59,822 nucleotides of DNA, taken from positions 1 through 59,822 of IMG/VR virus record IMGVR_UViG_3300021959_000041, one strand, 5' to 3'. Positions 1,547-58,735 of this stretch are shown piece after piece (position 1 is the stretch's first letter; the number at the start of each line of letters is the position of its first letter). A program made the position numbers and the translations under genes. Source of the DNA: a virus. Lineage: Duplodnaviria > Caudoviricetes. Below the pieces are notes generated by a model that saw nothing but the letters and a program-made list of their open reading frames with translations, made no database searches and had not been told where the DNA came from.

Positions 1547-1725
1547 TTGCTATTTTTATAATCAAGCACAAACCCAATCGCTACAAGTAAATTCATTCCT
1601 ACTGAAGAGGCTATCTCCACCAAGTCATGAAACGAATGTATCGATAAATGCACATGCCCTACAATCCAAAAAGGTATGGCTAAGTTTTGGCTTATCCAAA
1701 TAAGTGTAAACTTAACTAGCCTCAT
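1543..1725 (-). CDS. small membrane protein (two predicted hydrophobic helices)
   Basis: 60 aa, two hydrophobic segments, overlaps both neighbours. Confidence 0.65.
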   Translation of the reverse strand: MRLVKFTLIWISQNLAIPFWIVGHVHLSIHSFHDLVEIASSVGMNLLVAIGFVLDYKNSK

Positions 1726-3307
1726 AAGTTCTCGCCATTGTTACAATCGCATTAGTAGATAGTATGGTCACCGCAACACTTACAGCGTTTTGTAGTGCCT
1801 GCTTTGTTACCTTCATGGGGTCTATAATTCCAAGCTCTATTAGGTCACCTTCTTTCCCGCTCTTCACATCCAGACCTATGTTCTTCTCGTTATACACTCT
1901 ACTGTTCTGTATCCCTGCGTTCTCTTGTATCTGCTTAAGCGGCTCTAGCAGCGCCCCCCCCAAAATCGCCTTGGCGATTTTTTTTGAGCTACTTTTTGAC
2001 CCTTTTAGTAATAAACCCTCTTGATACAGAGCCAGTCCTGCCCCAGGGAGTATGCCTTCCTCTAGGGCACTACGGACTGCGCACACTGCGTCATCAACTC
2101 TATCGAACAGTTCCTTTTGCTCTAGGTCTGTGTTCCCACCTACGTAAATAACACCAACCCCACCTGTGAGGGATGCTATACGAGAGAGGATAAACTCCTT
2201 GTCCATCTTCTTAACTGTTACGGAATGGGCTTCCCAGAGCTGTGCTACCCTCTTATCGATTAGCTTCTCATCCACATGAGAATCATCTTTGATTATTATA
2301 CTAGAGTCTTTCCCTACGATTATCTTCTTTGCACGACCCAGGTCTTCAAAGGACATAATGCTCATATCGTCTCCAGTTTTTTCTGAAAAATAAGTAGCCC
2401 CTACTGACAGAGCTATGTCTTGCATCAGTTCATGTTGCTTATAGCCAAAGGAGGGTGGAATTATGGCACAAAGCTTCAAGCTGTTCTTCATCACATTCGC
2501 CGCTAGGGTGTTTATGACTTGTTGTGAACAAGGCGCTACTATTAATAATTTTTTTCCTTCATTGATAATTGGTTTTAATATATTCTCAATGACAAGTATG
2601 TTGTTTATCTCTGCATCAGATACAAGGACATGTACATCCTCCATGATACACTCATCCTTTTTTTGATTGTTGATAAACAGAGGCGATGAGTACCCTCTGT
2701 CTATCTTCAATCCGTTTGTGGTTTCAAAGCCGGTCTCAGACCCTTGAGCTTTCTCCACCGTTACTATCCCGTTTTTTCCTATAGATGTGTATGTGTCTGC
2801 TATTATCTTCCCTACATGGGTGTCATTGTTTGCAGATATGGTTGCCACATCTAGTAATTTTTTATCGGACACTTTGCGTGAGCGCTTCTTTAGATTGCTC
2901 ACTACATCCTCGGTCAAAGAAACCATATCACGTAGGACCTGGGTTTTATTGTCTGCATCTTCAAGCTCCTCTATACCTGTGCGAACTAATGCTTCTGTCA
3001 GAACAATAGCCGTAGTCGTTCCATCCCCTGCATTAGCTGCAGTACGAGACGCTGCCTCTCTCATCATCTGAACCGCTAGGTTCTCTACCGGGTCTAATAG
3101 TTGTATGGACTTAGCTACAGTAACCCCATCCTTAGTCACAGTTATCCCATGGGTATGACTAGCTGACTCTATTAGAACAGTATTACCCATAGGCCCAAGC
3201 GTAGACTTTACAGCCTTAGACATTTTCGTTATTCCTTTGATTAGTTTAGACCTAGCCTCTTTAGAAAAGTGCAAGTCTTTCGGTGAGTACCCTCCAGTAG
3301 TTTCCAT
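1712..3307 (-). CDS. groEL: chaperonin GroEL (Cpn60), phage-encoded
   Basis: TLGPMG, VTKDGVTVAK, AGDGTTTA, RVDDAVCAVRSALEEGILPGAG and GIIDPMKV motifs; lacks the GGM tail. Confidence 0.97.
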   Translation of the reverse strand: METTGGYSPKDLHFSKEARSKLIKGITKMSKAVKSTLGPMGNTVLIESASHTHGITVTKDGVTVAKSIQLLDPVENLAVQMMREAASRTAANAGDGTTTAIVLTEALVRTGIEELEDADNKTQVLRDMVSLTEDVVSNLKKRSRKVSDKKLLDVATISANNDTHVGKIIADTYTSIGKNGIVTVEKAQGSETGFETTNGLKIDRGYSSPLFINNQKKDECIMEDVHVLVSDAEINNILVIENILKPIINEGKKLLIVAPCSQQVINTLAANVMKNSLKLCAIIPPSFGYKQHELMQDIALSVGATYFSEKTGDDMSIMSFEDLGRAKKIIVGKDSSIIIKDDSHVDEKLIDKRVAQLWEAHSVTVKKMDKEFILSRIASLTGGVGVIYVGGNTDLEQKELFDRVDDAVCAVRSALEEGILPGAGLALYQEGLLLKGSKSSSKKIAKAILGGALLEPLKQIQENAGIQNSRVYNEKNIGLDVKSGKEGDLIELGIIDPMKVTKQALQNAVSVAVTILSTNAIVTMARTYEAS

Positions 3308-3352
3308 TCGATTTGATTTAATTACTCAAATATATAAAAAGTTTTTTATCCA

Positions 3353-3540
3353 ATGACACTATGACGAAAATTTTCTCCTATATCTCTCTATATAAATTTT
3401 ATATTTTATTTTTTTTCTTATATACGACCCCTTCTCTTTTCGTCATTTCGTCATAAAAAAAAGTAAAGTATTAATAATCAATAAGTTAAAGCATGACGAC
3501 TTTGATTATTTTCGTCATGGATATGACGAACTTCGTCATA
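3353..3540. repeat. cluster of ATGACGAA/TTCGTCAT octamers around an AT-rich tract (iteron-like, candidate origin or operator)
   Basis: Copies at 3361, 3439, 3447, 3493 (one mismatch), 3511, 3523, 3532, degenerate at 3353; both orientations; palindrome 3522-3540; non-coding. Confidence 0.8.
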
Positions 3541-3589
3541 ATTCATATCTATTTAGAATTATTCTAAATTATTTCTAATTAATATTTCT

Positions 3590-3624
3590 TTAAAAATAGA
3601 AAAAGCTACCCCTGAAGGTAGCTT
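3590..3624 (-). terminator. intrinsic terminator
   Basis: AAGCTACC/GGTAGCTT hairpin followed on the minus strand by TTCTATTTTT. Confidence 0.75.
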
Positions 3625-3664
3625 CCCTAAACACTAACTAACTAACAAATATGAACTAATATGA

Positions 3665-3850
3665 TTAATTCATAAACTTTTCGAGCATCTTAGCTCGCTG
3701 AATACCTTCAGCAATCTGCTCACTATTTCTTTGAGCCTTAACCATCTTTCTAAGCTTTGCAGCTTTTTCAATTCCCATCATTCCATCAGGTCGGTCATTA
3801 ATAAGTCTACCATCCTTGACGTATAGACCATCTACAAAATTATCTTTCAT
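3665..3850 (-). CDS. hypothetical protein, 61 aa (MKDNFVDGLYVKDGRLIN...)
   Basis: ORF track 3665..3907; ATG at 3850 preferred because it follows the upstream ORF stop. Confidence 0.7.
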   Translation of the reverse strand: MKDNFVDGLYVKDGRLINDRPDGMMGIEKAAKLRKMVKAQRNSEQIAEGIQRAKMLEKFMN

Positions 3851-3852
3851 AA

Positions 3853-3993
3853 TTAATATTTTATTACTATGCTTATGAGTCCTAGAAAAACTGTCACCTC
3901 GGACCAATCATGTTGCTCGTCCTCTGCATAGTATTGAAAGCCTATTGCAAATCCGATGCGTATACGATTGTGAATTTCTATATCCCACGGCAT
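3853..3993 (-). CDS. hypothetical protein, 46 aa (MPWDIEIHNRIRIGFAIGFQYY...)
   Basis: Read manually; TACCTTTG promoter element 3 nt upstream (3997-4004). Confidence 0.7.
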   Translation of the reverse strand: MPWDIEIHNRIRIGFAIGFQYYAEDEQHDWSEVTVFLGLISIVIKY

Positions 3994-4380
3994 ATACAAA
4001 GGTACAAAAAAATTACATTAGTTATCTAGAGTGTTTGGGTTCTCTACCATCTCACGTTGCATACCCCCAAAAGCAAAGTCGATTTTTTTTTTCGACCAGT
4101 TTTCAATTCATTTTATTTCCTCCAACTTTTTTGGCTTTTTCCCCTGTCAACCCTTGGTATCATTGACCTTCCCTCCAGAAAAACTAGGGAAACTTTCCAG
4201 AAGTTTTGTTTGTCCAACAAAGGTAGACCTTCCCTTTAATATCTCAAAGAATTAAATCCCTCCTCAATAAAAAGAAAGGAAAGAATGTTGATAACTTTTT
4301 GACTACCAGTGTTAATGCGACCTCACAATTCACTTTACTAAATTAATAGTGTATAAAATATAGTATTACAAAAAAATAAA

Positions 4381-4411
4381 TTTGGAATTACAAAATAAAA
4401 GATTACCTTTG
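4381..4411 (+). promoter_or_regulatory. Bacteroidota housekeeping-sigma promoter (early P1)
   Basis: TTTG (4381-4384), 19-nt spacer, TACCTTTG (4404-4411); matches the -33/-7 consensus. Confidence 0.85.
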
Positions 4412-4443
4412 GATTTTAAATAACAAATTAAAACACACAAATT

Positions 4444-4641
4444 ATGAGAAAAATTACATTTAATGAGTCAAAGGAAATAATCGAAGTAATATTAAAATTA
4501 GCAGATGATTATAAAAAAGGAAGATTTGATAAGAAGATACTTGAGGAAGTTATTACAAAAATTTACAAAGATTCAGGTTGCCAGACAGAAAAGGAAATCC
4601 AGAAAATTGTAGACAATTCATTCAGCAAGTTCCTCGGCTAA
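4444..4641 (+). CDS. early hypothetical protein, 65 aa
   Basis: ORF track; first gene after promoter; A-rich leader. Confidence 0.8.
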   Translation: MRKITFNESKEIIEVILKLADDYKKGRFDKKILEEVITKIYKDSGCQTEKEIQKIVDNSFSKFLG

Positions 4642-4699
4642 GCGAGGTTAAAGAGGCATTAGGCTTAGTGCGTTCCAGTCTTCGGACTGGAGGTTGTTT
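4632..4699 (+). ncRNA. pistol self-cleaving ribozyme
   Basis: P1 CCTCG/CGAGG; loop GCTAAG pairs with CTTAGT (pseudoknot); TTAAA linker; P2 AGGCA/TGTTT; TTAGG; GCGT; P3 TCCAGTC-TTCG-GACTGGA; GGT cleavage junction. Colinear with the env25 pistol architecture. Confidence 0.88.
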
Positions 4700-4719
4700 A
4701 ACTTAAAAACTAACAAATT

Positions 4720-4839
4720 ATGAACTTTGAATTTAATTGTGCATACTGCGACAAACCAGTAGCAACGACAACAACACCAGAAGGATTTTTTCAAGTCCTT
4801 GATGGGTGTGAATGTATAACTAATAATAACAAATCATGA
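4720..4839 (+). CDS. 39-aa Cys-rich (CxxC...CxC) peptide
   Basis: Read manually: MNFEFNCAYCDKP...GCEC; ATGA overlap with ardC. Confidence 0.65.
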   Translation: MNFEFNCAYCDKPVATTTTPEGFFQVLDGCECITNNNKS

Positions 4840-5723
4840 AAAACATATACGATAAAATCAATGACCAAGTCCTAGAGGGCTTGGAGAAAGAAGGCTTGAA
4901 CTGGTTCAGACCATGGAAGTCTGGACAGGCTAATCAGCCGATGAACTACTCAACTGGGAAGTTTTACAAAGGCTTTAACATCTTCATGCTCAACTTTGAG
5001 ATGGTCGATAAGGAGTATGAGTATAACCAGTGGATGACCTACAAACAGGCTCAAGCTAAAGGTGGACAGGTCAAGACTGGCTCAAAGTCTACTGATGTTT
5101 ACTTCTACAAAGTTTCTTACCAGAACACTAAAACAGGAGAGTATTCAGATACTCCTACAGGTGACCTTAAAGACTGGAGAAAGACCTTTGCGATTAGATA
5201 CTTCAAAGTATTTAATATCGCCCAGACTGAAGGCTTAGAGCCACTACCAGTGGAGGAGTTTGAGCCAACTGAAGACCAGACTAATGAGATGGCTAAGAAC
5301 CTGTCAACAGGATACTTAGAGAGAGAGTCAATCACTATCAATCCATTTGGTAGGAGTGCATCTTATAGTCCATCCAGAGACCACATTGAGATGCCATCAC
5401 TGGAGACCTTCTGTGACTCGGACTCATACTACAAGACTTTGTTTCATGAGATGGCTCATTCAACTGGTCATGAGACTAGGCTCAAAAGAGCCACTCTAAT
5501 GGATGTTGCACACTGGGGTGACAATACCTACTCCAAGGAGGAGTTAGTCGCTGAGATATCAGCTATGTACCTTGTAGGGATATTGGGACTTGAACCTCAA
5601 GACTCGACCTTCAATTCACAGGCTTATATCAAGGGATGGTGCAAACACCTTAGAGACAAGTCCAGAGAGTGTGTTAATGCGATGCAACAAGCTACCAAGG
5701 TAGTGGAGTTCATCCAAGGATAG
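4836..5723 (+). CDS. ardC: antirestriction protein ArdC (ssDNA-binding domain plus zincin-like domain)
   Basis: WFRPW, YKGFN, WMTYKQAQAKGGQVK, YFKVFN, LFHEMAHSTGH, YSKEELVAE motifs. Confidence 0.92.
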   Translation: MKNIYDKINDQVLEGLEKEGLNWFRPWKSGQANQPMNYSTGKFYKGFNIFMLNFEMVDKEYEYNQWMTYKQAQAKGGQVKTGSKSTDVYFYKVSYQNTKTGEYSDTPTGDLKDWRKTFAIRYFKVFNIAQTEGLEPLPVEEFEPTEDQTNEMAKNLSTGYLERESITINPFGRSASYSPSRDHIEMPSLETFCDSDSYYKTLFHEMAHSTGHETRLKRATLMDVAHWGDNTYSKEELVAEISAMYLVGILGLEPQDSTFNSQAYIKGWCKHLRDKSRECVNAMQQATKVVEFIQG

Positions 5724-5760
5724 CATGGTGCTTGGGGAGGTTCGATTCCTCCCCTATTCA
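5718..5760 (+). ncRNA. miniature tRNA-like element 1
   Basis: GGATA/TATTC stem, GCA-TGG-TGC mini hairpin, GGGGAGG-TTCGATT-CCTCCCC T-arm; overlaps ardC stop. Confidence 0.7.
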
Positions 5761-5804
5761 CGACTTAAATGTCAATAAATAAATAGTAACTAAATAAACA
5801 AATT

Positions 5805-6110
5805 ATGAAAAACGATTTTAAAGATAAAGTTAACTGCTTAAAATTCTCTATCGGAGACAGGTTTGAATTATCAATCTCTGATGTAGGTAGGGGAGGAGGA
5901 GCATGTTGGAAGGAAGTGTTAATATGGGATGCTGAATTTGAGTCTGAATTTTCAGATAAAAAAGGAGGATTTCTAGACAACTTCAACGAAGGGTGCTTAG
6001 GTGTTAATGGTCTGCATGAGGTAATCCTCAAAGCAGTCAAACACTGCAACAATGTACTCATGAATGAGATGATTGAAGAGGGTGATAAAAGGTTCATCAC
6101 TTTAGACTAG
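5805..6110 (+). CDS. early hypothetical protein, 101 aa
   Basis: ORF track; A-rich leader typical of this region. Confidence 0.8.
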   Translation: MKNDFKDKVNCLKFSIGDRFELSISDVGRGGGACWKEVLIWDAEFESEFSDKKGGFLDNFNEGCLGVNGLHEVILKAVKHCNNVLMNEMIEEGDKRFITLD

Positions 6111-6148
6111 CTTGGAGCAGGGGAGGGTTCGACTCCCTCCTTAGTCTC
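6104..6148 (+). ncRNA. miniature tRNA-like element 2
   Basis: AGACTA/TAGTCT stem, GCT-TGG-AGC mini hairpin, GGGAGGG-TTCGACT-CCCTCCT T-arm; overlaps stop codon. Confidence 0.7.
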
Positions 6149-6162
6149 AATGTTTACAGGGC

Positions 6163-6195
6163 TTTAGGAATTGTCAAATATTCTTTGTAGCTTTA
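6163..6195 (+). promoter_or_regulatory. early promoter P2 (variant)
   Basis: TTTAGGAATTGTCA ... TAGCTTTA; shares GGAATT and spacing with P1 and P3. Confidence 0.6.
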
Positions 6196-6235
6196 CAAAC
6201 ATTATACAAACATTTTACTAACTAAATTAAAAATT

Positions 6236-6940
6236 ATGAATACAGAAAATAAACAACACAAATTAAACACTAACGAGTATCAACTGCTTCACGAGTGGTT
6301 GAGGTCACTCAATAAAGTCCAAGAACATAGACCCGATAAAATTACTATATCTGATTATGCTAGCTATGTATTATCACAAAACCCAACCGAGTGGTGGGCC
6401 AATTATGAAAACCATTTAGCAAATTCATTTAAACTATCTGATGGCTCTTATTGGGCTAACAATGGAAAGTATCAAAAGTTTGCTGATAAGGTTGAAAAGC
6501 TAGTGCCTATTAGAGATGCGGTAATAAAACATCTTCCTTACTCTCTTGAGCCTAAGCAATCATTTAAACCTTTGCTTGAATGTTTCAGAGTGTACTCTAA
6601 TATCTACTACGATTTGTACAACAATGGTGGCACAAATAAGTATGATAGAAGAGAAGTACCTAATGAACTTTACGGAGATTATTCTTGGGAGTATTACTGG
6701 AGGGATGATACTGACGAAGAAGTGGTTGATACCATCGACAAGTATTTAAAGTTGCCGGAAAGCAAGAGCCTAAAGTATAACTACCAAGAGGAAGTTGAAG
6801 CTTACTACGATGGGGGTAGGTCGGCCGCCAATAGATACTATATCGAAAGAGTCGGAGACCAACTCCTAGAGAAACTCCAAGAAGCCTACAAGAGTGAAAA
6901 TGCTCATCTCTTAGAAAGGCTTGAAGGAGTCGAGGCATAG
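6236..6940 (+). CDS. early hypothetical protein, 234 aa (YYDLYNNGG motif)
   Basis: ORF track; long ORF with A-rich leader. Confidence 0.85.
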   Translation: MNTENKQHKLNTNEYQLLHEWLRSLNKVQEHRPDKITISDYASYVLSQNPTEWWANYENHLANSFKLSDGSYWANNGKYQKFADKVEKLVPIRDAVIKHLPYSLEPKQSFKPLLECFRVYSNIYYDLYNNGGTNKYDRREVPNELYGDYSWEYYWRDDTDEEVVDTIDKYLKLPESKSLKYNYQEEVEAYYDGGRSAANRYYIERVGDQLLEKLQEAYKSENAHLLERLEGVEA

Positions 6941-6980
6941 GGATGCATGGTGCGAGGGCAGTTCGATTCTGCCCATCCCA
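6940..6980 (+). ncRNA. miniature tRNA-like element 3
   Basis: GGGAT/ATCCC stem, GCA-TGG-TGC mini hairpin, GGGCAG-TTCGATT-CTGCCC T-arm; starts in stop codon. Confidence 0.7.
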
Positions 6981-6986
6981 CAAAGA

Positions 6987-7018
6987 TTTGGAATTGTCAT
7001 TTCAGTTCCATACCTTTA
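6987..7018 (+). promoter_or_regulatory. early promoter P3
   Basis: TTTG (6987-6990), 20-nt spacer, TACCTTTA (7011-7018). Confidence 0.7.
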
Positions 7019-7042
7019 CAAAAGTTTTACAAACACAGAACT

Positions 7043-7591
7043 ATGAAACTAACTTTATATCATGGCACTAGCTCGGTTCATCTGGATAAGATTCTGGAGT
7101 CTGGACTAGTCCCTAGATACAACAATGACTCAGAGTGGGAGTGTGCATCTCGACCAGATATGATTTATCTGACCAGTGCTTACCCTCTTTACTTTGCTGA
7201 GCATAGCATCAACCACAATGGTGGTGAACCTGTTGTCTTTGAAGTCGAGGTGGATACATTGAGACTCTACCCAGATGAAGACTTCTTAGAACAGGCGACA
7301 AGAAGCGAGAAGTATAAAGATTCATACTCCGAGCTTCAAGGTCTAGACATGGAAGCAAGGACTAAGTATTTTAGAGATAGCTTGGAAGAGTATAAGCATC
7401 ACTACGATGATAGTCTGAAGTTCCTAGGGAATTGTTGTCACAAAGGCATTATTAAACCCAAAAGGATTAGAAGGTATGTCATTCCAGATATGAGTATCAG
7501 GAGAAAGTCAGACCCTTCGATTACGACAAACAACTTCAGGTTTATGTCGCACTACTATGCCGAGCTGATACAAGAAATGTTTAACAAATAA
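7043..7591 (+). CDS. ADP-ribosyltransferase-fold protein (Tpt1/KptA-like or polyvalent ART-like)
   Basis: LYHGTS...ILESGL, IYLT, YFA, VVFEV motifs; start moved to ATG 7043, downstream of promoter P3. Confidence 0.65.
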   Translation: MKLTLYHGTSSVHLDKILESGLVPRYNNDSEWECASRPDMIYLTSAYPLYFAEHSINHNGGEPVVFEVEVDTLRLYPDEDFLEQATRSEKYKDSYSELQGLDMEARTKYFRDSLEEYKHHYDDSLKFLGNCCHKGIIKPKRIRRYVIPDMSIRRKSDPSITTNNFRFMSHYYAELIQEMFNK

Positions 7592-7602
7592 ATTACTAAC
7601 TA

Positions 7603-7740
7603 ATGAAACAAATAAATATTACTTGTACTTCTGACAAATCAGGAGTAGAAATACATAAAATCTTAGTGGACATTTTTTATAATAGTGGATACTCTGAAGA
7701 ATTTAAAAGTGCTGACTGGAAAATTAAAGGAGGGAATTAA
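7603..7740 (+). CDS. 45-aa hypothetical protein
   Basis: Read manually; fills the gap and has an A-rich leader. Confidence 0.6.
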   Translation: MKQINITCTSDKSGVEIHKILVDIFYNSGYSEEFKSADWKIKGGN

Positions 7741-7741
7741 A

Positions 7742-7972
7742 ATGCAACTAACAAGTAAACAGATTTTAAAAATGCTAGAGGAGATTGACAACGAGGCTAT
7801 CGATGTCGGTCTTCACTCTACCTGTCCTGTCACTGACAAGAAGGTAGGACTGGGTGTTAAATTAATTAACACGCCTGTGAGGTCTCAAAGACCAGTAGAT
7901 AATCTCTTTGCTATGCAGAACTTTGCAATGCAAGAGATGTTAAAAGCTATAACTAAAAAACCTAGCTTATGA
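7742..7972 (+). CDS. hypothetical protein, 76 aa
   Basis: ORF track 7685..7972; ATG 7742 directly after upstream stop. Confidence 0.7.
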   Translation: MQLTSKQILKMLEEIDNEAIDVGLHSTCPVTDKKVGLGVKLINTPVRSQRPVDNLFAMQNFAMQEMLKAITKKPSL

Positions 7973-8067
7973 TTTCAGAATGTTGTGATGCGATGCCATG
8001 GGTTGATGCAGCTTATGGCATCTGTAGTGATTGCAAAGAGCATTGCGATTTTTATTTAGAAGAGTAA
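7969..8067 (+). CDS. 32-aa Zn-finger-like peptide (MISECCDA...ICSDCKEHC)
   Basis: Read manually; ATGA coupling; CC...CxxCxxHC pattern. Confidence 0.7.
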   Translation: MISECCDAMPWVDAAYGICSDCKEHCDFYLEE

Positions 8068-8073
8068 AAGATT

Positions 8074-8127
8074 TGTCTCCCAATATCAACAATAGATTAT
8101 TATCTTAGTGAGGGGGACATTTTTTTT
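8074..8127 (+). terminator. intrinsic terminator closing the early region (30-nt loop)
   Basis: TGTCTCCC/GGGGGACA stem followed by a T run. Confidence 0.7.
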
Positions 8128-8170
8128 CTTTTGACTTGCATAAGTCAAATCTTTGTATTATCTTTGTCAC

Positions 8171-8356
8171 ATGATTTTAACCTGTAGCAAATGCGATAGC
8201 CAGAACTTAGAAGTTCTTCACGATGATTACCATGGTGAATACACAAGCTTGACTTACATTTGTTCAGATTGTCAAACTAAAACAACTAACTATTATGATG
8301 CAATTTTTACTTTCAATACCAGCCTTCCGAAGATACAGAAGGAAGAGGTTACATAA
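8171..8356 (+). CDS. Zn-ribbon protein
   Basis: CSKC...CSDC; TATCTTTG promoter element at 8159-8166, 4 nt before ATG. Confidence 0.7.
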   Translation: MILTCSKCDSQNLEVLHDDYHGEYTSLTYICSDCQTKTTNYYDAIFTFNTSLPKIQKEEVT

Positions 8357-8579
8357 AGATTATGTATATAGCAATATGCTTCAGCTTAGAAATGAAGCAG
8401 TCAGATTACTTATCTCTGTAAGTAATGGAGATGACATCCAGAAGGTCAGAGATTCAAGACAAAAACCTTATGTGATTTGCAAAATATCTCAAGGTGATTT
8501 ATATTTACTTAAAGAAGCAAAGAGAAAATATTCTTTAGCTTCCAAATATAAACGAAGACTACAACTCCTTAACTTTTAA
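8295..8579 (+). CDS. basic hypothetical protein (start uncertain)
   Basis: ORF track; fits the operon. Confidence 0.55.
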   Translation: MMQFLLSIPAFRRYRRKRLHKDYVYSNMLQLRNEAVRLLISVSNGDDIQKVRDSRQKPYVICKISQGDLYLLKEAKRKYSLASKYKRRLQLLNF

Positions 8580-8581
8580 TT

Positions 8582-8749
8582 ATGCCACAAGAAAAAACAT
8601 TTGAAGAGTTAAGAATTGAAACTATAGTGAATCTAATTAAAGATACTTTAGTAGATTTAGAAATATTACAATCGAGTAGTGGTAACATGTCTTATGACCA
8701 AGACCAACGATTGAAAAAAATAATAACTAATCTTAAAAAAATACAATGA
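8582..8749 (+). CDS. 55-aa hypothetical protein
   Basis: Read manually (MPQEKTFEELRIETIV...); ATGA coupling to next gene. Confidence 0.65.
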   Translation: MPQEKTFEELRIETIVNLIKDTLVDLEILQSSSGNMSYDQDQRLKKIITNLKKIQ

Positions 8750-9048
8750 AAGAATATATCTATCAACAATATTTAAATAACATCTGTTCCCACATGGGGA
8801 TAGAGAGTTCTGATTTGTTTGTTAAGTCAAAGGAGACAGGAGTGGTCGATGGAAGACAACTCCTGTACTACCTTTGTTACAACAATAGCAATATGAAGCT
8901 AACAGAAATCAGTACATACACAAACAACCAAGGATTCCATGAAGACCAAGCTAATATATCTAGGTCAGTAGAATCATTCAGTAAGAAACTTGAGTCTGAT
9001 AAAGACCTTCAAGCAATCGTTGATAAAATTAAAAGGGTTGAAGTGTAA
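8746..9048 (+). CDS. DnaA domain IV-like helix-turn-helix protein
   Basis: DLFVKSKETGVVDGRQLLYYLC...LTEI...DQANISRSV resembles the DnaA C-terminal DNA-binding domain. Confidence 0.65.
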   Translation: MKEYIYQQYLNNICSHMGIESSDLFVKSKETGVVDGRQLLYYLCYNNSNMKLTEISTYTNNQGFHEDQANISRSVESFSKKLESDKDLQAIVDKIKRVEV

Positions 9049-9430
9049 TAATTTACAGGAGGTATTTGACCAAGCTAAGCATACCCATGGGTGTGTAAAT
9101 ATAGATGGGTCTGGATACCAAGCCTATATCTATCTGGGGGTGAAGATTTCCAGAGATGACCTGACCGAAGAGATAATAATATATGACCCACAAAAAAGCA
9201 TACATTATTATGTTGAGATTGAGAAATATTTATATGACTTGTTTCTTGATAAAGGTTGGAGAGATGCAGTCATTCATATAACACTAGAGAAGTACAAATC
9301 AAAACTTGAGAGAATCAAGGAGGGTATTTCAAAAGAGATGAATGGAAGCCAAAGTCCTAAAAGACTAAGAGTTCTCAAAGAGATGCGAGAGCAAATATTA
9401 AAGAAGTATTATAAACTAACACAAAAATAA
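8990..9430 (+). CDS. hypothetical protein (start possibly TTG 9038)
   Basis: ORF track. Confidence 0.7.
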   Translation: MSLIKTFKQSLIKLKGLKCNNLQEVFDQAKHTHGCVNIDGSGYQAYIYLGVKISRDDLTEEIIIYDPQKSIHYYVEIEKYLYDLFLDKGWRDAVIHITLEKYKSKLERIKEGISKEMNGSQSPKRLRVLKEMREQILKKYYKLTQK

Positions 9431-9433
9431 CTA

Positions 9434-10027
9434 ATGAGTAATAAATTAAATACATTCGATATACTTTCTAAAGTAAATGTCAATGACTTTACAAAAAAGA
9501 AAGGTCAACTTACATATTTATCATGGTCACATGCATGGGCAGAAGTTAAAACAAGATTTCCAGATGCATCGTACACCTATTATGTAAATCCAGAAACCAA
9601 TCAACCATATTCTTTTGAAGAAAATGTAGGTGGGTTCTGTCATACATCGGTAACAATATCAGGGGAAACTTTGTCTATGTGGTTACCTATCTTAAACTAT
9701 AGTAACAAGTCGGAAATGAATCCAAAAGCATTTGACATTAACACTTGTCTCATGAGGTGTTTAACTAAAAACTTAGCAATGTTTGGACTAGGTTTTTATA
9801 TATATAAAAGCGAAAGTTTTCCAGTTGATATAGAAGAAGAAAAAGAAAAGCCAGTAACTTCAAAGCTAAAACCTATGAGTGAAGCCAATTATCCAGTTAT
9901 ATTAAAAACTGCTAAAGTCTATCAGAAAGAAAAGATGAAGTGGGATGATATAACTTTAAAAATTAGCAAAAAGTTTGTCTTAGATATTGAGCTTTTACAA
10001 AAACTTGAAAAAGAGCTTTATGGATAG
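9434..10027 (+). CDS. sak: Sak/Rad52-like single-strand annealing protein (DUF1071)
   Basis: LTYLSWSHAW, MWLPILNY, INTCLMRCLTKNLAMFGLGFYIY motifs. Confidence 0.85.
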   Translation: MSNKLNTFDILSKVNVNDFTKKKGQLTYLSWSHAWAEVKTRFPDASYTYYVNPETNQPYSFEENVGGFCHTSVTISGETLSMWLPILNYSNKSEMNPKAFDINTCLMRCLTKNLAMFGLGFYIYKSESFPVDIEEEKEKPVTSKLKPMSEANYPVILKTAKVYQKEKMKWDDITLKISKKFVLDIELLQKLEKELYG

Positions 10028-10841
10028 AGATAAAATTATAGAGCAACTCAAGGATGATGAGTTATACTATGGTGAGTTTGGTAAGCAGTTCTTATCTAAC
10101 TCAGACCTTAAATATCTTAAGACTGAAAGTTCAGCTAAAGAGTTTCGTTCAGTTAAAAAGTTTTCAAACACTGAGCTACTTAATTTAGAGTTAGGTAGAT
10201 ACTTTCATCAGCTAATGCTTGAGCCAGATAAAGCTAAAGACTTTCCGATGGTCGATGTAAAGACTAGAAATGCAAACGAGTACAAGCAATACTTAGAAGA
10301 TAACAATCTGGAGTATGTGCTTAGAACTTCAGAGGCTCAAGATATCAAAGACCTTGCTGACTGGGTGTTAAATCCTAAGTCAGAGTATGGTACTGATAGA
10401 GTCAGAGTTTTACTTAACAACCCAATTGCACTTAAAGAGCAACCAGCAGTAGCTGAGTTACATGGCCACATGTTTAAAGGTAAGGCAGACCTTATTACTT
10501 TAGATTTGGATGGTCAGTATGTTATAATAGATTTAAAAACCACTGGAAGTAATCCATCTGATATTAATATATATAGGATGCGAGATTTCGGATACCATTC
10601 CCAGTGCTACTTATATAAGGAACTTTTCGGTATGGACTTTAAGTTCATCTTCTTTGGAAAGAAACCGAAGGTAAATGAGAGTGGTGAAATCTATTATGAT
10701 ATTGAAGAGATAACTCCATCAGAAGATACTATTGAAAGTGGTAAGATGGCAGTTATGAATGCACTAGCAAACTACGATAAGTTTTTTGGGGAAGGTGCAA
10801 CACACGATGTGCGAAAGTCGTACACGAGAAGAGTAATTTAA
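10020..10841 (+). CDS. PD-(D/E)XK exonuclease (RecE/exonuclease VIII-like)
   Basis: LSNS, GRYFHQLMLEP, KGKADL, IIDLKTT, YHSQCYLY; next to SSAP. Confidence 0.8.
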   Translation: MDRDKIIEQLKDDELYYGEFGKQFLSNSDLKYLKTESSAKEFRSVKKFSNTELLNLELGRYFHQLMLEPDKAKDFPMVDVKTRNANEYKQYLEDNNLEYVLRTSEAQDIKDLADWVLNPKSEYGTDRVRVLLNNPIALKEQPAVAELHGHMFKGKADLITLDLDGQYVIIDLKTTGSNPSDINIYRMRDFGYHSQCYLYKELFGMDFKFIFFGKKPKVNESGEIYYDIEEITPSEDTIESGKMAVMNALANYDKFFGEGATHDVRKSYTRRVI

Positions 10842-10851
10842 ACATATATAT

Positions 10852-11088
10852 ATGAGTGATTATAAACACAAAGATGGTATGGGTTCTTTATTTCCTAATA
10901 AGTATAAGGAGAAAGAAAACCAGCCTGACCATAAGGGTACAATGACAGACCTTAATGGACAAGTTTGGGAGATTGCTGGGTGGAATAGTACTACCCAAGC
11001 AGGTGACCCAAAGATTTCCATCAAGCAAAGCAAACCCTATGTCAAGCCTGAAGATAAGGAAGACAAAAAAGGTGAAGACCTTTTCTAG
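10852..11088 (+). CDS. small SSB-like protein (DUF736-like)
   Basis: GSLFPN...QPDHKG...IAGW; acidic tail ending EDLF. Confidence 0.65.
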   Translation: MSDYKHKDGMGSLFPNKYKEKENQPDHKGTMTDLNGQVWEIAGWNSTTQAGDPKISIKQSKPYVKPEDKEDKKGEDLF

Positions 11089-11110
11089 TTAATTAAATTT
11101 AATTTATAAC

Positions 11111-11167
11111 AGGAGTGAGGAGATTTTTTTCTTTTCATATTAATTGGTTTTCTCCTCCTCCTTTTTT
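11111..11167 (+). terminator. terminator-like hairpin with a 27-nt U-rich loop
   Basis: AGGAG-T-GAGGAGA / TCTCCTC-CTCCT stem followed by a T run. Confidence 0.65.
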
Positions 11168-11181
11168 AACAAACAAACAAA

Positions 11182-13581
11182 TTGAAAACAGAAGTAACAA
11201 TATTTAAAAACATACTGGAGACCGATACGCCTTTTCACAGAGATGTGATGTTCATACTGGACAGGATTAAAGAGGGAAAGAATAGTGAACTGGTTAAAAG
11301 AATTAGAAACGAAAAAAATAAGTCAGAGAGAAACGAGCTTAAGAAAAAGCTTCCATCAATATGTTTCTCTGGAGTATTCAACAAGCGTTCTGACTCAGCA
11401 TTGGTTGAGCATAGTGGTCTTATCTGTTTAGACTTTGATGGATATGAAAAGAAGAAAGACCTAACAGATGACAGAGCAAAGTTTGAAAAGAATAAGTTTG
11501 TCTTTGCAGTTTTTGTTTCACCCTCTGGTAATGGACTAAAGGTTTTAGTTAGGATACCTAAAGACCCAGAGAACCACACAAAGTATTTCAATGCCCTTAA
11601 AAAACATTTTGCATCATCTTACTTTGATACTACATCAAAAAATATTTCAAGAGTATGCTATGAAAGTTTTGATAAACAAATCTATGTCAATCAGAAAAGT
11701 AAACTATGGGAAAAATTAGAAGAAGAAGAGTACCAAGAAAAGCATTTAGCACAAGGTCAACCACTGCTAAAAATTACAGACGAAAGAAAGATAGTAGAGA
11801 TTCTACTCAAGTGGTGGCAATCTAAGTACCCTATGACCGAGGGTCAGAGGAATCACAATGTCTATGTGATAGCTCAGGCTTTGAATGAGTTTGGTATCAA
11901 TAAGACTACTGCATCTATTATATGTAATAATTATGCAACAAAAGACTTTCCATCCAGAGAGATAGATAGTACAATCGACTCAGCGTATAGCAAGACTCAT
12001 CTGTTTAACACAAAGTATTATGAGAACACTGAGATAATAGATAATGTAAAGCAAAGACTTAAAAGGGGTGAGCCAAAGAAAGAGGTTAAGAAAGACCTGC
12101 AGAGGAGTGAATTACCTGACCATACAATTGAGGCAGTTATAAAGAAAGCTGAAGAGGGAAAGGATGAGGAGTTTTGGACAAAGAATGAGAAGGGTGTGAT
12201 AAAGATAGTGCCATTATACTTCAAGAAGTTCTTAGAGGATTGTGGATTTTATAAATATACTCCAGAGGGAAGCAATAGTTTTGTGTTTGTAAGAGTGACC
12301 AACAATCTTATAGACCATTCAAGTGAAAAGCAAATAAAAGATTTCGTATTAGACTATCTGTATCAGATTGAAGATGTGTCGATTTATAATTACTTTGCAG
12401 AGCAAACCAGATACTTTAAAGAAGAGTTTCTTACATTAATAAACACAATCGATGTATATTTTATAGAAGATACTAAGGATACATCTTATCTATATTTTAA
12501 AAATTGTGCTGTACAAATTAAAAAATACGAGGTCTCAGCTATAGATTATGTAGACCTTGATGGGTATGTATGGAAAGACCAAGTAATCGACAGGGCGTTT
12601 CGTGAGTGCCTGATTACAGAGTGTGACTACAAAACATTCATACATAATGTGTGTGGACAGAATGAAAAGAGAACTCTTTCGATGGAGTCAACCATTGGAT
12701 TCTTAATGCATGGTCATAAGAACTTATCTTATTGTCCAGCAGTTATACTAAACGATGAGGTTATCTCTGACAATCCAGAGGGAGGAACAGGTAAGGGTAT
12801 ATTCATGAATGCTCTGAGTCACATGAAAAAACTTGTTACTATTGATGGTAAAGCTTTTGCTTTTGAGAAATCATTTGCCTATCAACTGGTCTCGGTGGAT
12901 ACTCAGATACTCTGCTTTGATGATGTCAAGAAGTATTTCAATTTTGAAAGACTCTTCAGTGTAGTAACAGAAGGTTTGACTCTGGAGAAGAAAAACAAGG
13001 ATGCTATTAAGATACCATTTAGCAAGAGCCCTAAGATAGCTATCACCACAAACTATGCCATAAAGGGTACAGGTAATTCTTTTCAAAGAAGGAAGTGGGA
13101 GCTTGAACTTTACCAACACTATACTAAATCTTATACACCACAAGATGAGTTCGGAAAACTATTCTTTGGAGACTGGGATGATGATGAGTGGTGTGTGTTT
13201 GATAACTATATGATTGAATGTCTTCAGTTGTATTTAAAAGAAGGGTTAATTGAAAGTGAGTTTGTTAATCTTAAAATCAGACAACTCTCAGCCTCAACAT
13301 CTCATGACTTTATTGAGTGGTGTGGATTGTTAGCTGACTCAAATGAAAATGATAAGTTAGGGGTGGGCTTAAAAATATATAAGAATGAATTGTACTTTGA
13401 CTTCATTAATGAATACCCGGACTACGGACCGAAGTCCAAGATGACTATAAGTAGACAAGTCTTTTATAAGTGGCTGCATTTTTATGCGGAATATGCGACA
13501 GGTCATCCACCTGTAGAAGGGAAGGACATGACAGGTCGATGGATAGAATTGACAGAGCCAGACATTGAACCAGCTTTTTAA
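11182..13581 (+). CDS. primase-helicase fusion (BT4734/VirE-N-like primase, PriCT-like domain, SF3-type P-loop helicase)
   Basis: KKKLPSICFSG, SGLICLDFD, FVSPSGNGLK, SRVCYES; EGQRNH; Walker A GGTGKG, Walker B LCFDD, ITTN. Confidence 0.85.
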   Translation: MKTEVTIFKNILETDTPFHRDVMFILDRIKEGKNSELVKRIRNEKNKSERNELKKKLPSICFSGVFNKRSDSALVEHSGLICLDFDGYEKKKDLTDDRAKFEKNKFVFAVFVSPSGNGLKVLVRIPKDPENHTKYFNALKKHFASSYFDTTSKNISRVCYESFDKQIYVNQKSKLWEKLEEEEYQEKHLAQGQPLLKITDERKIVEILLKWWQSKYPMTEGQRNHNVYVIAQALNEFGINKTTASIICNNYATKDFPSREIDSTIDSAYSKTHLFNTKYYENTEIIDNVKQRLKRGEPKKEVKKDLQRSELPDHTIEAVIKKAEEGKDEEFWTKNEKGVIKIVPLYFKKFLEDCGFYKYTPEGSNSFVFVRVTNNLIDHSSEKQIKDFVLDYLYQIEDVSIYNYFAEQTRYFKEEFLTLINTIDVYFIEDTKDTSYLYFKNCAVQIKKYEVSAIDYVDLDGYVWKDQVIDRAFRECLITECDYKTFIHNVCGQNEKRTLSMESTIGFLMHGHKNLSYCPAVILNDEVISDNPEGGTGKGIFMNALSHMKKLVTIDGKAFAFEKSFAYQLVSVDTQILCFDDVKKYFNFERLFSVVTEGLTLEKKNKDAIKIPFSKSPKIAITTNYAIKGTGNSFQRRKWELELYQHYTKSYTPQDEFGKLFFGDWDDDEWCVFDNYMIECLQLYLKEGLIESEFVNLKIRQLSASTSHDFIEWCGLLADSNENDKLGVGLKIYKNELYFDFINEYPDYGPKSKMTISRQVFYKWLHFYAEYATGHPPVEGKDMTGRWIELTEPDIEPAF

Positions 13582-13582
13582 A

Positions 13583-14827
13583 ATGAAATTTAGAGATTAC
13601 CAAATACAGATAATTGAAAAAGCGAAGGGTGTGCTTCAGGCACACCGCTTCGTTTATCTTTCAATGGAGGTGAGAACAGGAAAGACTCTGACTGCTTTGG
13701 GAGTGGCAGATAGACTGGGCATAAAGAACCTTTTGTTTGTCACTAAGAAGAAAGCTATTAGTTCAATCGAGGCTGACTATAATAAGTTGAAGCCAAGTTA
13801 TAGCATAACTATAATAAACTATGAAAGCCTTCATAAGGTTAGAATCAATCAACCTAACAGTGTTGATTTAATTGTACTTGATGAGGCGCATACCTTAGGT
13901 GCATACCCAAAGCCAAGCAAGAGGACTAAGCTAGTCAAAGAAATAATTTTAAGACAGAACCCTTATGTAATCCTTATGTCTGGAACTCCTACTCCAGAAT
14001 CATTCAGTCAGATATATCATCAAGTGTATGCTTGTCCTAAGAATCCATTTATTGAGTATAAAAGCTTTTATAAATTTGCTAAAGATTATGTTAATGTTGT
14101 TCAAAAAGTAATCAACTCCTTTCACATAAACAACTACGATGATGGTAAACCTGTGATACTGGACAGGATGAAACCATACATGATAAGTTATACTCAGAAG
14201 GAAGCGGGGTTTAAATCAGAGATAAAAGAACATGTATTGAAAGTAGAAATGAGTAAACTCACATACGACTTTGTAAAAGAAATGAGAGAGCATGGAATAA
14301 TAACAGGAAAGAAAACGAAGGAAGTAATCCTAGGAGATACAGGAGTAAAGAAGATGTCAAAAATACACCAGCTTTTTTCTGGAACTGTGAAGTTAGAAAA
14401 TGGAAAGCGTATGGTAACTGACTTATCAAAAGCTAGGTTTATAGGCGCTGAATTTAAAAGCAGGAAGATAGGTATATTCTATAAGTTTAAAGCAGAGTAT
14501 GATGCTTTAAAACAAGTCTATGGAGATAACCTGACTGATGACTTGCAGGAGTTCAAGACAACCAATAAAAATATAGCCCTTCAGATTGTTAGTGGGCGTG
14601 AAGGAATAAGTTTAAAGGAGGCTGATTGTCTTGTGTACTACAATATAGATTTCTCGGCTCTGAGTTACTGGCAGTCTCGTGACAGGATGACAACTAAAGA
14701 TTCTAAGGTAAGTGATGTTTATTGGATATTTGCAGAGAGAGGGATTGAAACTAAAATATATAAAACTGTAACCAATAAAAAAGATTACACCCTCAGACAT
14801 TTCAAAAAAGATTTACTAAGTTTATAA
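13583..14827 (+). CDS. SF2 (SNF2-like) helicase
   Basis: RDYQ, RTGKT, INYESL, LDEAH, MSGTP, SGREGISL, QSRDR motifs. Confidence 0.88.
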   Translation: MKFRDYQIQIIEKAKGVLQAHRFVYLSMEVRTGKTLTALGVADRLGIKNLLFVTKKKAISSIEADYNKLKPSYSITIINYESLHKVRINQPNSVDLIVLDEAHTLGAYPKPSKRTKLVKEIILRQNPYVILMSGTPTPESFSQIYHQVYACPKNPFIEYKSFYKFAKDYVNVVQKVINSFHINNYDDGKPVILDRMKPYMISYTQKEAGFKSEIKEHVLKVEMSKLTYDFVKEMREHGIITGKKTKEVILGDTGVKKMSKIHQLFSGTVKLENGKRMVTDLSKARFIGAEFKSRKIGIFYKFKAEYDALKQVYGDNLTDDLQEFKTTNKNIALQIVSGREGISLKEADCLVYYNIDFSALSYWQSRDRMTTKDSKVSDVYWIFAERGIETKIYKTVTNKKDYTLRHFKKDLLSL

Positions 14828-14829
14828 TT

Positions 14830-15048
14830 ATGAAAGAACAAAAATTAATAGAGATGATGAACAAGCTAGACAAGCTTGACAACATCATGCAAGAAGTCAT
14901 CAAAGAGATGATGAATATCAGAAGCCTATCGGTTGGAACACTTGAAGCTCTCAAGAGAATGAAAGGATACGACAAAGCTATCGAGCAACTTAAAAAAGAT
15001 GCAGCTAAAGATAAAGAGAAAGCTGAAAATGAAGGACAGAAAAACTAA
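14830..15048 (+). CDS. coiled-coil hypothetical protein
   Basis: ORF track. Confidence 0.75.
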   Translation: MKEQKLIEMMNKLDKLDNIMQEVIKEMMNIRSLSVGTLEALKRMKGYDKAIEQLKKDAAKDKEKAENEGQKN

Positions 15049-15427
15049 TTTCGATTACGATTTAATTATTGGTCAACAAGGAGAAAAATTGGTTGACCAT
15101 ATTTTTAAAAATTCAACCATTGAAGTTAAAAGAGACTTTTGGACAGGAACGACAGGTAATATTGCAGTTGAGTTCGAGAGCAGAGGTAAACCTTCTGGGA
15201 TTGCTAAAACTAAATCAGATTATTACGCATTTGTTTTAGCTGAACAATTCAGAGATGAGGTAATAATTATAATTAAAACAAGTAGATTAAAACAGATTGC
15301 TAGAAAGTACTATTTAAAAGGACGTGTTAAGGAAATGGGTGACGACAAAACATCTCTATCGGTTTTAATACCAATAAAAGATTTAAGTAACTTTGCATAT
15401 AATGACAGAGCAACAGATACAAACTAA
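15029..15427 (+). CDS. PD-(D/E)XK-type nuclease
   Basis: GE...IEVKRD...TGNIAVE...GKPSGI...SDYY. Confidence 0.6.
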   Translation: MKDRKTNFDYDLIIGQQGEKLVDHIFKNSTIEVKRDFWTGTTGNIAVEFESRGKPSGIAKTKSDYYAFVLAEQFRDEVIIIIKTSRLKQIARKYYLKGRVKEMGDDKTSLSVLIPIKDLSNFAYNDRATDTN

Positions 15428-15641
15428 AAAGATTAAAGAGCTGGAGGCTGATGGTTATTTTGTTATTAAATTAATCAAGACTAATAAGAATGGTATACCA
15501 GATGTATTAGCATTACACCCAGATTATGGTATTGAGTTTTATGAAATCAAAACCAAGAAGGGTAAAGTGTCTAAGCTTCAGGAGTACCGCATGAAAGAAC
15601 TAAAAGAATATGGATTTACCGCAGAGGTTTACAGGGGATGA
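15402..15641 (+). CDS. VRR-NUC nuclease (Holliday junction resolvase-like)
   Basis: EQQIQ...GIPDVL...FYEIK...GKVSKLQ; TAACTTTG promoter element at 15388-15395. Confidence 0.85.
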   Translation: MTEQQIQTKKIKELEADGYFVIKLIKTNKNGIPDVLALHPDYGIEFYEIKTKKGKVSKLQEYRMKELKEYGFTAEVYRG

Positions 15642-15954
15642 ACATTTTTACGAAATGGAAGAAAACTTTTTAGAGGAGCTTGAGACTTTACCTCCACTAT
15701 ATAGTGCTGGAATTATAATGCAGTTAGATAAGTTGGCAAGTGAAATGCATGAAGAAAAAAAATACGCTGATGAACCAAGAAGGTTTGGCATGGTTGCAGG
15801 TGTTGTTGCTATGCAAGAACCATTGTTTTTTAGTGTAGAATATCTTAACTCAAGAAGTATGTTTCCTTTGTTTTATAAATTTAATATTATAACTTCGGAT
15901 GAATACTTAGACTACTTAAACCTAAACAAAACTATTGACTATGAAAACAATTGA
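15610..15954 (+). CDS. hypothetical protein
   Basis: ORF track; start uncertain. Confidence 0.7.
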   Translation: MDLPQRFTGDEHFYEMEENFLEELETLPPLYSAGIIMQLDKLASEMHEEKKYADEPRRFGMVAGVVAMQEPLFFSVEYLNSRSMFPLFYKFNIITSDEYLDYLNLNKTIDYENN

Positions 15955-16471
15955 AATAAAAGAATCCTCAAAACTAAAAGCAATAAGAAATGAAGTCGTT
16001 AACAAATTTAACGCAGATATAACAAAGAAAAACAGAAACCGAGAACTTGTGTATGGAAGAGCTGTTTACTATAAGCTATGCAAAAACCTAACCAGTCATT
16101 CTCTGACTGACATTGGCTCATTTATATGTAAAGACCACGCCACTGTGCTTCATGGCTTAAAAGTTTTTGAAACTTTTGAATTAAACAACGATTATTACTA
16201 CCTCAATGCTTATGAAGAAATGTTTAATAAATTAAAATTAAACTATGCCATTAACATAAAAAACCCTAGGGATTTAAAAACAAAATATTACAAGTATATA
16301 AATGAAAACATTAATTTAAAAGAGAAAAACAAATTAATGCGTGTTCTAATTCAAAAAGAGTTTAAAGATATATTTAATGAGTGTAGAAAAGAGTTTGGGT
16401 ATGTTCCACAAACTGCATACTTGAAGCAAAGATTTGCAAAAATTAACGAAATGTTGAAAAAAATTTCATAA
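15935..16471 (+). CDS. DnaA domain IV-like protein with C-terminal extension
   Basis: KNRNRELVYGRAVYYKLCKNLTSHSLTDIGSFICKDHATVLHG matches the DnaA signature region. Confidence 0.8.
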   Translation: MTMKTIEIKESSKLKAIRNEVVNKFNADITKKNRNRELVYGRAVYYKLCKNLTSHSLTDIGSFICKDHATVLHGLKVFETFELNNDYYYLNAYEEMFNKLKLNYAINIKNPRDLKTKYYKYINENINLKEKNKLMRVLIQKEFKDIFNECRKEFGYVPQTAYLKQRFAKINEMLKKIS

Positions 16472-16483
16472 CTTTAAGTTGTA

Positions 16484-16720
16484 TTGATACTTATGTCTTA
16501 TAACATAGATGACATTGAAAAGATTCTAAACTTCACGAGCTGGAGTAATAAAAGGAAAATAGATACTCTTTTTGAAATTGACGCAGACCTTTATTGTAAT
16601 TTAGGCAGCGACTCTAATAAGACTGAAGTTGAAAAAGTAAAGAAACAGTCTCGTAAAATTTACAAGGCTATAAAAAGAATCGATGAGTACACAGGAAGGT
16701 TATTGTTAAGAGAACAGTAA
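16484..16720 (+). CDS. hypothetical protein
   Basis: ORF track. Confidence 0.75.
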   Translation: MILMSYNIDDIEKILNFTSWSNKRKIDTLFEIDADLYCNLGSDSNKTEVEKVKKQSRKIYKAIKRIDEYTGRLLLREQ

Positions 16721-16730
16721 ACCTTAAAAA

Positions 16731-16919
16731 ATGAATATAACACCGCTAGAACAAAAGCGTCTTCAAAACATTAACTTTATAATGGAAGATATTCATGACT
16801 CAGTAAATCAAATATACGAAACATTGGTAGACCAAGAGTATGATGAAACTCGTAAGTCTATACTGACTCTTAATAGTAAATTAAAAACTATTAACGAATC
16901 AATAAACGATGAGCTATAA
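16731..16919 (+). CDS. hypothetical protein
   Basis: ORF track. Confidence 0.7.
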   Translation: MNITPLEQKRLQNINFIMEDIHDSVNQIYETLVDQEYDETRKSILTLNSKLKTINESINDEL

Positions 16920-56545: not shown

Positions 56546-56549
56546 TTAA

Positions 56550-57755: not shown

Positions 57756-57756
57756 A

Positions 57757-58734: not shown

Positions 58735-58735
58735 A

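Follow-up and report, generated by a model that had tools for sequence, protein, structure and literature searches.

The analyzed DNA, referred to below as the window, comprises 59,822 bases and represents a whole virus that is approximately 99% complete. A block of genes occupies positions 4444–17625 of its + strand, and nearly all other genes are located on the − strand. The block encodes ArdC, a Sak annealing protein, a PD-(D/E)XK nuclease, a BT4734-type primase-like protein, an SNF2-type helicase, a DnaA-C domain protein, and a phosphoesterase. Its first ORF, ORF65 (4444..4641, +, 65 aa), belongs to no Pfam or PHROG family, and its last three sense codons and stop overlap a full-length pistol self-cleaving ribozyme (4632..4698, +; Rfam model RF02679, 67.5 bits). 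The 5′ part of the message expected after the cut is a 26-nt A/U-rich leader (4694..4719, +), which is followed by the first cistron past the cut, ORF39 (4720..4839, +), encoding a 39-aa CxxC...CxC peptide without a Pfam or PHROG family. Next comes the gene of the ArdC-like anti-restriction protein (4836..5723, +), in which the ArdcN domain (PF08401, 4e-28) and the zincin metallopeptidase domain (PF18818, 9.5e-31) were identified together with phrog_7245 (1.2e-65).

ORF65, the ribozyme, ORF39, and ardC share the + strand and are packed too closely for a promoter to fit between them. The start codon of ardC overlaps the stop codon of ORF39 (ATGA), so that ardC would be the second cistron of the processed message. 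An earlier note on this DNA had spoken of an "ardC message" after the cut; ardC is indeed located downstream, but ORF39 precedes it as the first cistron. The same note called ORF65 the first early gene. It is the first ORF of the + block and the layout fits this description; the early timing of its expression is what we infer. The distance of 26 nt from the cut to the next ATG, also given there, agrees with the sequence, since the ATG is at 4720 and the leader at 4694–4719. The context of this start (..aac.aa..acaaatt ATG) is common to other + strand genes of the phage.

The unit may begin at two weak matches of TAnnTTTG found in the motif scan (4377–4384 and 4404–4411, +), a motif that we take to be the −7 element consensus of Bacteroidota. 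The matches at 4377..4411 are the only ones on the + strand between positions 1041 and 8159; over the whole window, the motif shows no enrichment (98 matches vs. 85.9 expected), and a sigma-70 promoter scan of the window found 9 matches vs. 10.3 expected. As for ORF65 itself, an identical protein is encoded on 24 contigs. A homologue of equal length is 74% identical to it, with the last 27 residues almost unchanged, and in another variant the first 44 residues are identical and the following ones are different. No relatives of ORF65 were found among viral contigs.

The 3′ end of ORF65 (4613–4633) is complementary to the first codons of ORF39 (4722–4739), forming an interrupted duplex of 16 bp (−12.1 kcal/mol, z −2.8) that would close around the ribozyme and mask the start of ORF39. 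A helix hiding the start of the downstream ORF was rejected as a feature of the family, since 90 panel members among the matches listed gave a mean z of −0.23 and a median of −0.02.

Several other features of the window were recorded. The motif TTCGTCAT has eight copies in the window in both orientations, six of which lie within 180 bp (3361–3539), in a divergent intergenic region adjoining a chaperonin gene. Approximately one copy per window is expected by chance and none of 100 shuffles reached eight; the cluster at 3361–3539 looks like an iteron or operator array. The chaperonin is of the GroEL/Cpn60 type (531 aa, 1712–3307, −; PF00118, 7e-53). Paralogous large proteins with DUF7483 and glycine-rich domains are encoded at 53585–59773 (−), and very large ORFs of 2702 aa (17868–25976) and 1655 aa (35861–40828) are present.

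According to the analysis of the whole window with Rfam 15, the Pistol model RF02679 matches positions 4632–4698 of the + strand with 67.5 bits against a gathering cut-off of 34.5 (E 3.6e-10). The alignment covers model positions 1–68 of 68 and is not truncated. RF02679 is the sole Rfam family above its gathering score across the 59.8-kb phage genome, and a permissive scan of both strands of the whole window (E ≤ 1) returned, beyond the pistol, only a 14-bit tmRNA fragment. In addition, the pistol core pattern has one match in the window and no match in any of 100 shuffled sequences. The earlier note had recognized a pistol ribozyme here and proposed a comparison with the Rfam covariance model; this comparison gave a full-length match far above the cut-off and bears out the identification. 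Its reading of all pistol elements in order, with P3 capped by UUCG, is the same in the sequence and in the model alignment. Of the span proposed there, 4632–4699, the start holds and the end is one base too far, as the model stops at 4698. Thus, 4632–4698 almost certainly belongs to the pistol family, and the RNA very probably cleaves itself, judging from this analysis. The element is an ordinary member of a known family, which was reportedly discovered by Weinberg et al. in 2015, and its kind is not new.

The P1 hairpin (4632..4647, +) is formed by 4632–4635 with 4644–4647 around an 8-nt loop, GGCUAAGC; it is present both in the model alignment and in the minimum free energy (MFE) fold, and its four pairs are all standard. 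The pseudoknot read from the sequence (4637..4669, +) joins 4637–4642 with 4664–4669, and all six pairs are standard (G.U, C-G, U-A, A-U, A-U, G-C). Since the covariance model does not score the pseudoknot, this pairing is an independent check on the identity of the element. The TAA stop of ORF65 (4639–4641) corresponds to model positions 8–10, and its three bases are all paired in the pseudoknot, in accordance with what had been noted for the stop of 4444..4641. In the model alignment, P2 (4655..4658 with 4695–4698, thus 4655..4698, +) consists of A-U, C-G, G.U, and G.U and is short and weak, two of the four pairs being G.U. The 8-bp hairpin P3 (4673..4692, +; 4673–4680 with 4685–4692, loop UUCG) is supported by the alignment and by the MFE fold, and the A-rich linker is present when the alignment is read against the sequence. 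The two-base G-U linker (4693..4694, +; model positions 63/64) carries the predicted scissile bond G4693/U4694. This is the site predicted in the earlier note, and it coincides with that of the family, in which exactly two bases, usually GU, connect P3 and P2 on the 3′ side and, according to Harris et al. 2015 (PMC4604425), hold the scissile bond. The same paper reports that pistols cleave at approximately 10 per min at physiological Mg2+ and that P1 and the pseudoknot are required for activity (mutants M1–M4). The MFE fold of 4632–4699 recovers P1 and P3 (z −2.63); the 201-nt fold around the ribozyme is unexceptional (z −0.72).

For comparison, a panel of phage pistols was collected from IMG/VR with a fixed-spacing core pattern, and it therefore contains only pistols with the exact spacing of that pattern. 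At least 118 stretches matched. Together with the window, the panel comprises at least 124 matches, of which at least 114 are unique by their flanks, with at least 95 distinct 42-nt cores. The window has all 22 columns that are invariant in the 95 sequences, plus G11, among the matches listed; the invariant T3, C4, G5, and G24 of the listed matches are not forced by the search pattern. Only three positions of the window (6, 17, and 38) depart from the capitals of the Rfam consensus, each of them variable in the panel, and the conserved core (A-rich linker, UUA.GC, GCGU) is found in it. The rare pair G6.U38 is of an accepted type, the pairs at this place being UA in 50, AU in 26, GC in 3, and GU in 2 of the matches listed.

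P1 covaries in the 95-sequence panel of listed matches. Over the 95 cores listed, P1 and the pseudoknot together are 97.3% paired, with changes on both sides at 7 of 10 pairs; the pseudoknot helix is 97.2% paired, with two-sided changes at five of its six pairs, again among the matches listed. The joint covariation score of both helices in the listed matches was reached by none of 500 shuffles, and when the partners were slid by 1–3 columns, pairing over the 95 listed cores fell to 29–44%. A simple rule placed the cut site in 99 of the 124 matches listed, and the linker is GU in 96 of these and AU in 3.

The position of the ribozyme between genes was compared over the 114 unique instances. Among the matches listed, a co-directional ORF of at least 50 aa ends within −200 to +75 of ribozyme position 1 in 106 of 114, and the first base of the upstream stop is at −20 to +31 in 72 of 114, as against 1286 of 11,400 (11%) in a control that drew positions and strands at random from the same loci. 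The commonest single stop position among the matches listed is 8 (positions 8–10, in the pseudoknot), with 14 of 114 including the window, followed by −1 (9), −4 (7), and −3 (6); at −1 the last base of the stop is the first base of the ribozyme. The stop touches the ribozyme (relative position ≥ −1) in 35 of the 114 listed instances, stands 0–20 nt ahead of it in 48, and is more than 20 nt away in 33. A stop triplet is present at positions 8–10 in 46 of the 114 listed matches and serves as a stop in 14. The next ORF starts 23–30 nt past the cut in 31 of 87 listed instances, against 403 of 11,400 (3.5%) at random, and 25–26 nt past it in 17 of 87, where 87 counts the unique listed instances for which the cut could be placed and an ORF of 30 aa or more follows downstream. 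The 26-nt distance of the window falls on the 25–26 nt mode of the matches listed. The layout of the window, with its stop overlap and start spacing, is typical of phage pistols. Since the stop lies in the pseudoknot in 14 of 114 and just ahead of the ribozyme in 48 of 114, the overlap seems to be one consequence of dense packing and not a device that pistols need.

No family is common to the 90 ORFs scanned downstream of pistols in the matches listed; the only recurrent families there are ArdC (two, one of them from the window) and MrpR_N_CB (two). Several contigs carry more than one copy, namely, L075, L082, L125, and L126, with two or three pistols each (three in L126). Pairs of listed panel members that are alike downstream only number 21, vs. 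4 alike upstream only; these pairs are not independent and correspond to roughly seven events vs. two. The ribozyme thus tends to travel with the downstream gene.

Relatives of the phage were taken as 80 IMG/VR records with a primase 63–97% identical to that of the window. A pistol above the cut-off was found in two of the 80, G004 (four copies) and G016 (one), and a sub-threshold one (27.7 bits) in G008. None of the 17 primase relatives that are at least 90% complete has a pistol. Its absence from these 17 and its presence in only 2 of 80 indicate that the ribozyme is dispensable in the lineage. The two closest relatives (97% and 95%) are fragments that stop short of the ribozyme region. The primase of G004 is 85% identical, and this relative is syntenic with the window from 8153 onward, its first ~7 kb being unrelated. 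Its four pistols (50.6–66.3 bits) lie within 2.3 kb of the early region (L135 1038–3289; contig 2399–4650), between small genes of the hypervariable early region, that is, in the same slot as in the window, and an A/U-rich leader of comparable length separates each of them from the next ATG. The stops upstream of the last three are found at positions 8–10 (second pistol), ending just before position 1, and inside the ribozyme; no convincing upstream ORF was found for the first. In G016, the stop is 5 nt before the pistol and the ATG 23 nt past the cut. In the G008 element (L139 283–348), P1, the pseudoknot, and the linker are intact, other bases stand in place of GCGU, and a run of U follows P3. 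Its sequence suggests a ribozyme that has decayed to an intrinsic terminator.

Other ribozyme classes were not found in 141 kb from seven primase relatives. Eight loci around the nearest ArdC homologues (49–58% identity) contained neither a pistol nor another ribozyme at E ≤ 1; in the phages with the closest ArdC homologues (L002–L004 2145–2218), a tRNA gene lies ~0.8 kb upstream of ardC instead. The pistol is likewise absent from four GenBank phages, the uncultured MW202828 and three cultured Flavobacteriaceae phages, and BLASTN of 3400–8400 against GenBank phages gave no match. The exact 24-nt ribozyme core was absent from the metagenome contigs searched, among which near relatives are possibly missing. 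An unrelated complete 55-kb phage (G001/L077) has one pistol only (65.9 bits), located 38 nt before the gene of an ArdC homologue with 37% identity (L077 1682–2676). In L029, an ArdC-like gene is located 2.3 kb downstream of the pistol. Cultured primase relatives infect Flavobacterium, Nonlabens, Polaribacter, Cellulophaga, and Maribacter, and the DNA runs that contain 80–99% of the words sampled come from marine, seawater, or estuary metagenomes. On the basis of these hosts and runs, the bacterial host is probably a marine member of Flavobacteriaceae.

Strain variation was found on both sides of the ribozyme. A contig from an RNA library (X16 record 9) represents a related strain and matches 4633–5155 with 23 differences; the 105 nt that it has ahead of 4633 do not resemble the window. 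Variant junctions before 4707 and behind 4724 occur in a DNA run, which means that the ribozyme is sometimes parted from the downstream gene. With junctions on both sides, the ribozyme is flanked by mosaic junctions. The RNA-library contig is the only RNA record over the site, and it bridges 4693/4694, so that uncleaved RNA, or DNA carried over into the library, exists. Being assembled contigs, such records cannot display RNA ends, and stretches that they leave uncovered carry no information; the bridging contig counts mildly against complete cleavage.

The best explanation of these data, to which we assign a probability of about 60%, is a constitutive ribozyme that cuts the early + strand mRNA between genes. 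As soon as RNA polymerase completes P3 and the 3′ strand of P2, the RNA would fold and cut between G4693 and U4694. The upstream piece would retain ORF65 with its stop, 52 nt ahead of the new 3′ end, and would end in the folded ribozyme, with P3 at the 3′ terminus and a 2′,3′-cyclic phosphate. The downstream piece would carry a 5′-OH on its first nucleotide and open with the unstructured, A/U-rich leader of 26 nt, ahead of ORF39, ardC, and the later genes. In this way, the ribozyme would act as constitutive punctuation, giving the downstream message a defined 5′ end and uncoupling the fate of the anti-restriction message from that of the leader gene. The predicted cleavage and the 5′-OH message follow from the biochemistry of the family as given in Harris et al. 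2015 (PMC4604425). For cleavage in vivo, the chemistry of the ends, and any effect on stability or translation, we infer the same behavior. The odds that the main role is mRNA processing between cistrons appear slightly better than even. A 2019 review (PMC6765202) describes polycistronic processing by phage ribozymes as suggested and unproven, and presents no demonstrated benefit of a 5′-OH end or of cistron separation for pistols. The close spacing of stop and start could also come from genome compaction alone.

The overlap with ORF65 raises the question of a switch gated by translation, in which a ribosome on the UAA of ORF65 keeps P1 and the pseudoknot unfolded and translation of ORF65 tunes cleavage. 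The stop is indeed formed by pseudoknot positions 8–10, which are the commonest stop site (14 of 114, with 35 of 114 stops touching the ribozyme, among the matches listed) and recur at the second G004 pistol, and both helices are needed for activity according to Harris et al. 2015 (PMC4604425). In addition, the homologue with the diverged N-terminal part retains the last 27 residues of ORF65 almost unchanged. However, the stop stands 0–20 nt before the ribozyme in 48 of 114 and more than 20 nt away in 33 of 114 listed matches, the triplet at 8–10 is used in just 14 of the 46 listed matches that possess it, and the first G004 pistol has no convincing upstream ORF, so stop overlap is not a requirement of the family. 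Moreover, cleavage is fast and irreversible, and ribosome occupancy could therefore merely delay the cut. Ribosome gating is possible at the window pistol, and as the explanation of the element it seems to us unlikely. The mosaic surroundings would also suit a mobile or neutral boundary of gene cassettes, either hitch-hiking with exchangeable early genes or offering its ~40-nt core as a patch of homology for recombination, with little or no benefit to expression. Such a boundary would account for the uneven occurrence within the lineage (0, 1, or 4 copies), the constant location in the hypervariable stretch that precedes the conserved replication module, the strain junctions at 4632/4633, 4706/4707, and 4724/4725, the ORF65 variant that diverges past residue 44, and the lack of a shared family among the 90 downstream ORFs of the listed matches. 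Against this, the catalytic-core columns and compensatory pairs are kept over the 95 listed sequences, which argues for selection on the fold and not for a homology patch; the fixed spacing to the next start codon points to a function in the message, and mosaic junctions of phages occur at gene borders anyway. We consider this boundary role rather doubtful.

An inactive relic, or a plain hairpin whose P3 and U-rich tail end or pause transcription, is highly improbable. A simple scan flags 4673–4692 with its tail as terminator-like, P2 contains two G.U pairs, and the G008 element (27.7 bits, GCGU lost, U run after P3) indicates that decay into a terminator does happen. The window copy, by contrast, scores 67.5 bits, level with the best phage examples (66.3 and 65.9), and retains all invariant columns and a perfect pseudoknot; the bases past its P3 are the family linker and P2 strand and form no true U-run. 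A more speculative combination, for which we see a small chance, is that pistols punctuate swappable early genes, with a ribosome-timed cut where the stop overlaps. Each pistol may then move with its downstream gene and trim the message to a ~25-nt leader with a 5′-OH, and the folded ribozyme may cap the 3′ end of the upstream message. At pistols with the stop in the pseudoknot, as in the window, the first terminating ribosome may time the cut, and, within minutes of infection, release of the ArdC message may be tied to translation of the leader gene.

Constitutive cutting between early genes, the reading preferred here, can be compared with several known systems. In the glmS ribozyme and in synthetic insulators (RiboJ), the cut leaves a 5′-OH on the downstream RNA and changes the fate of the message or insulates it; glmS depends on a ligand and destabilizes its own message, and RiboJ-type insulators are engineered. 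To our knowledge, no ligand pocket or regulatory role is known for the pistol. The biological role of the pistol and of most phage-borne self-cleaving ribozymes is described as open in the 2019 review (PMC6765202). The literature searched, which did not extend to Weinberg 2015 and supplements, contained no paper that assigns a role to the pistol or gives layout numbers of this kind. The context of phage genes and adjoining anti-restriction functions is already known in outline. The window copy is a clean, high-scoring test case, with a lone ribozyme separating a leader ORF from an anti-restriction operon, and it offers testable numbers: a stop at or within the 5′ end, a start 25–26 nt past the cut, and four copies in a close relative. 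If cleavage sets the stability or translation of the early anti-defence message, the pistol gains a function, which would also explain the clustering of these ribozymes in hypervariable early regions; otherwise, the window adds one more catalogued member.

Hammerhead ribozymes provide two natural parallels, both taken from Perreault et al. 2011 (PMC3088659). In a prophage of Agrobacterium tumefaciens, a trio of hammerheads flanks ardA and cleaves in vivo, and the proposed role is the cutting of long transcripts into gene-length mRNAs (PMC3088659). Like these hammerheads as described there, phage pistols lie between co-directional phage genes, adjoining an anti-restriction gene and sometimes in tandem. 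The window ribozyme is located between co-directional genes of one unit, as are 72 of 114 phage pistols among the matches listed; it is a single copy, with no tandem copies flanking single genes. Unlike the prophage elements described in that paper, the window ribozyme has the pistol class and fold, adjoins ArdC and not ArdA, and its cleavage is predicted only. In the haloviruses HF1/HF2, a 5′ end was mapped within three nucleotides of the cut of the HHphage hammerhead (PMC3088659). This ribozyme, too, precedes the first gene of an early polycistronic transcript by a few nucleotides. As described there, it differs in being a hammerhead of an archaeal virus, with 13 nt to the start (26 nt in the window) and no overlapping upstream ORF.

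The closest comparison is with the RF02679 family itself. The window copy has the same P1, pseudoknot, A-rich linker, P2, and variable P3 as described in Harris et al. 2015 (PMC4604425), the same GU junction with the scissile bond, and the same association with phage genes, with no structural difference. Its own features are its presence in a marine, probably Flavobacteriaceae phage, the G6.U38 pair, two wobble pairs in P2, and the stop codon in the pseudoknot.
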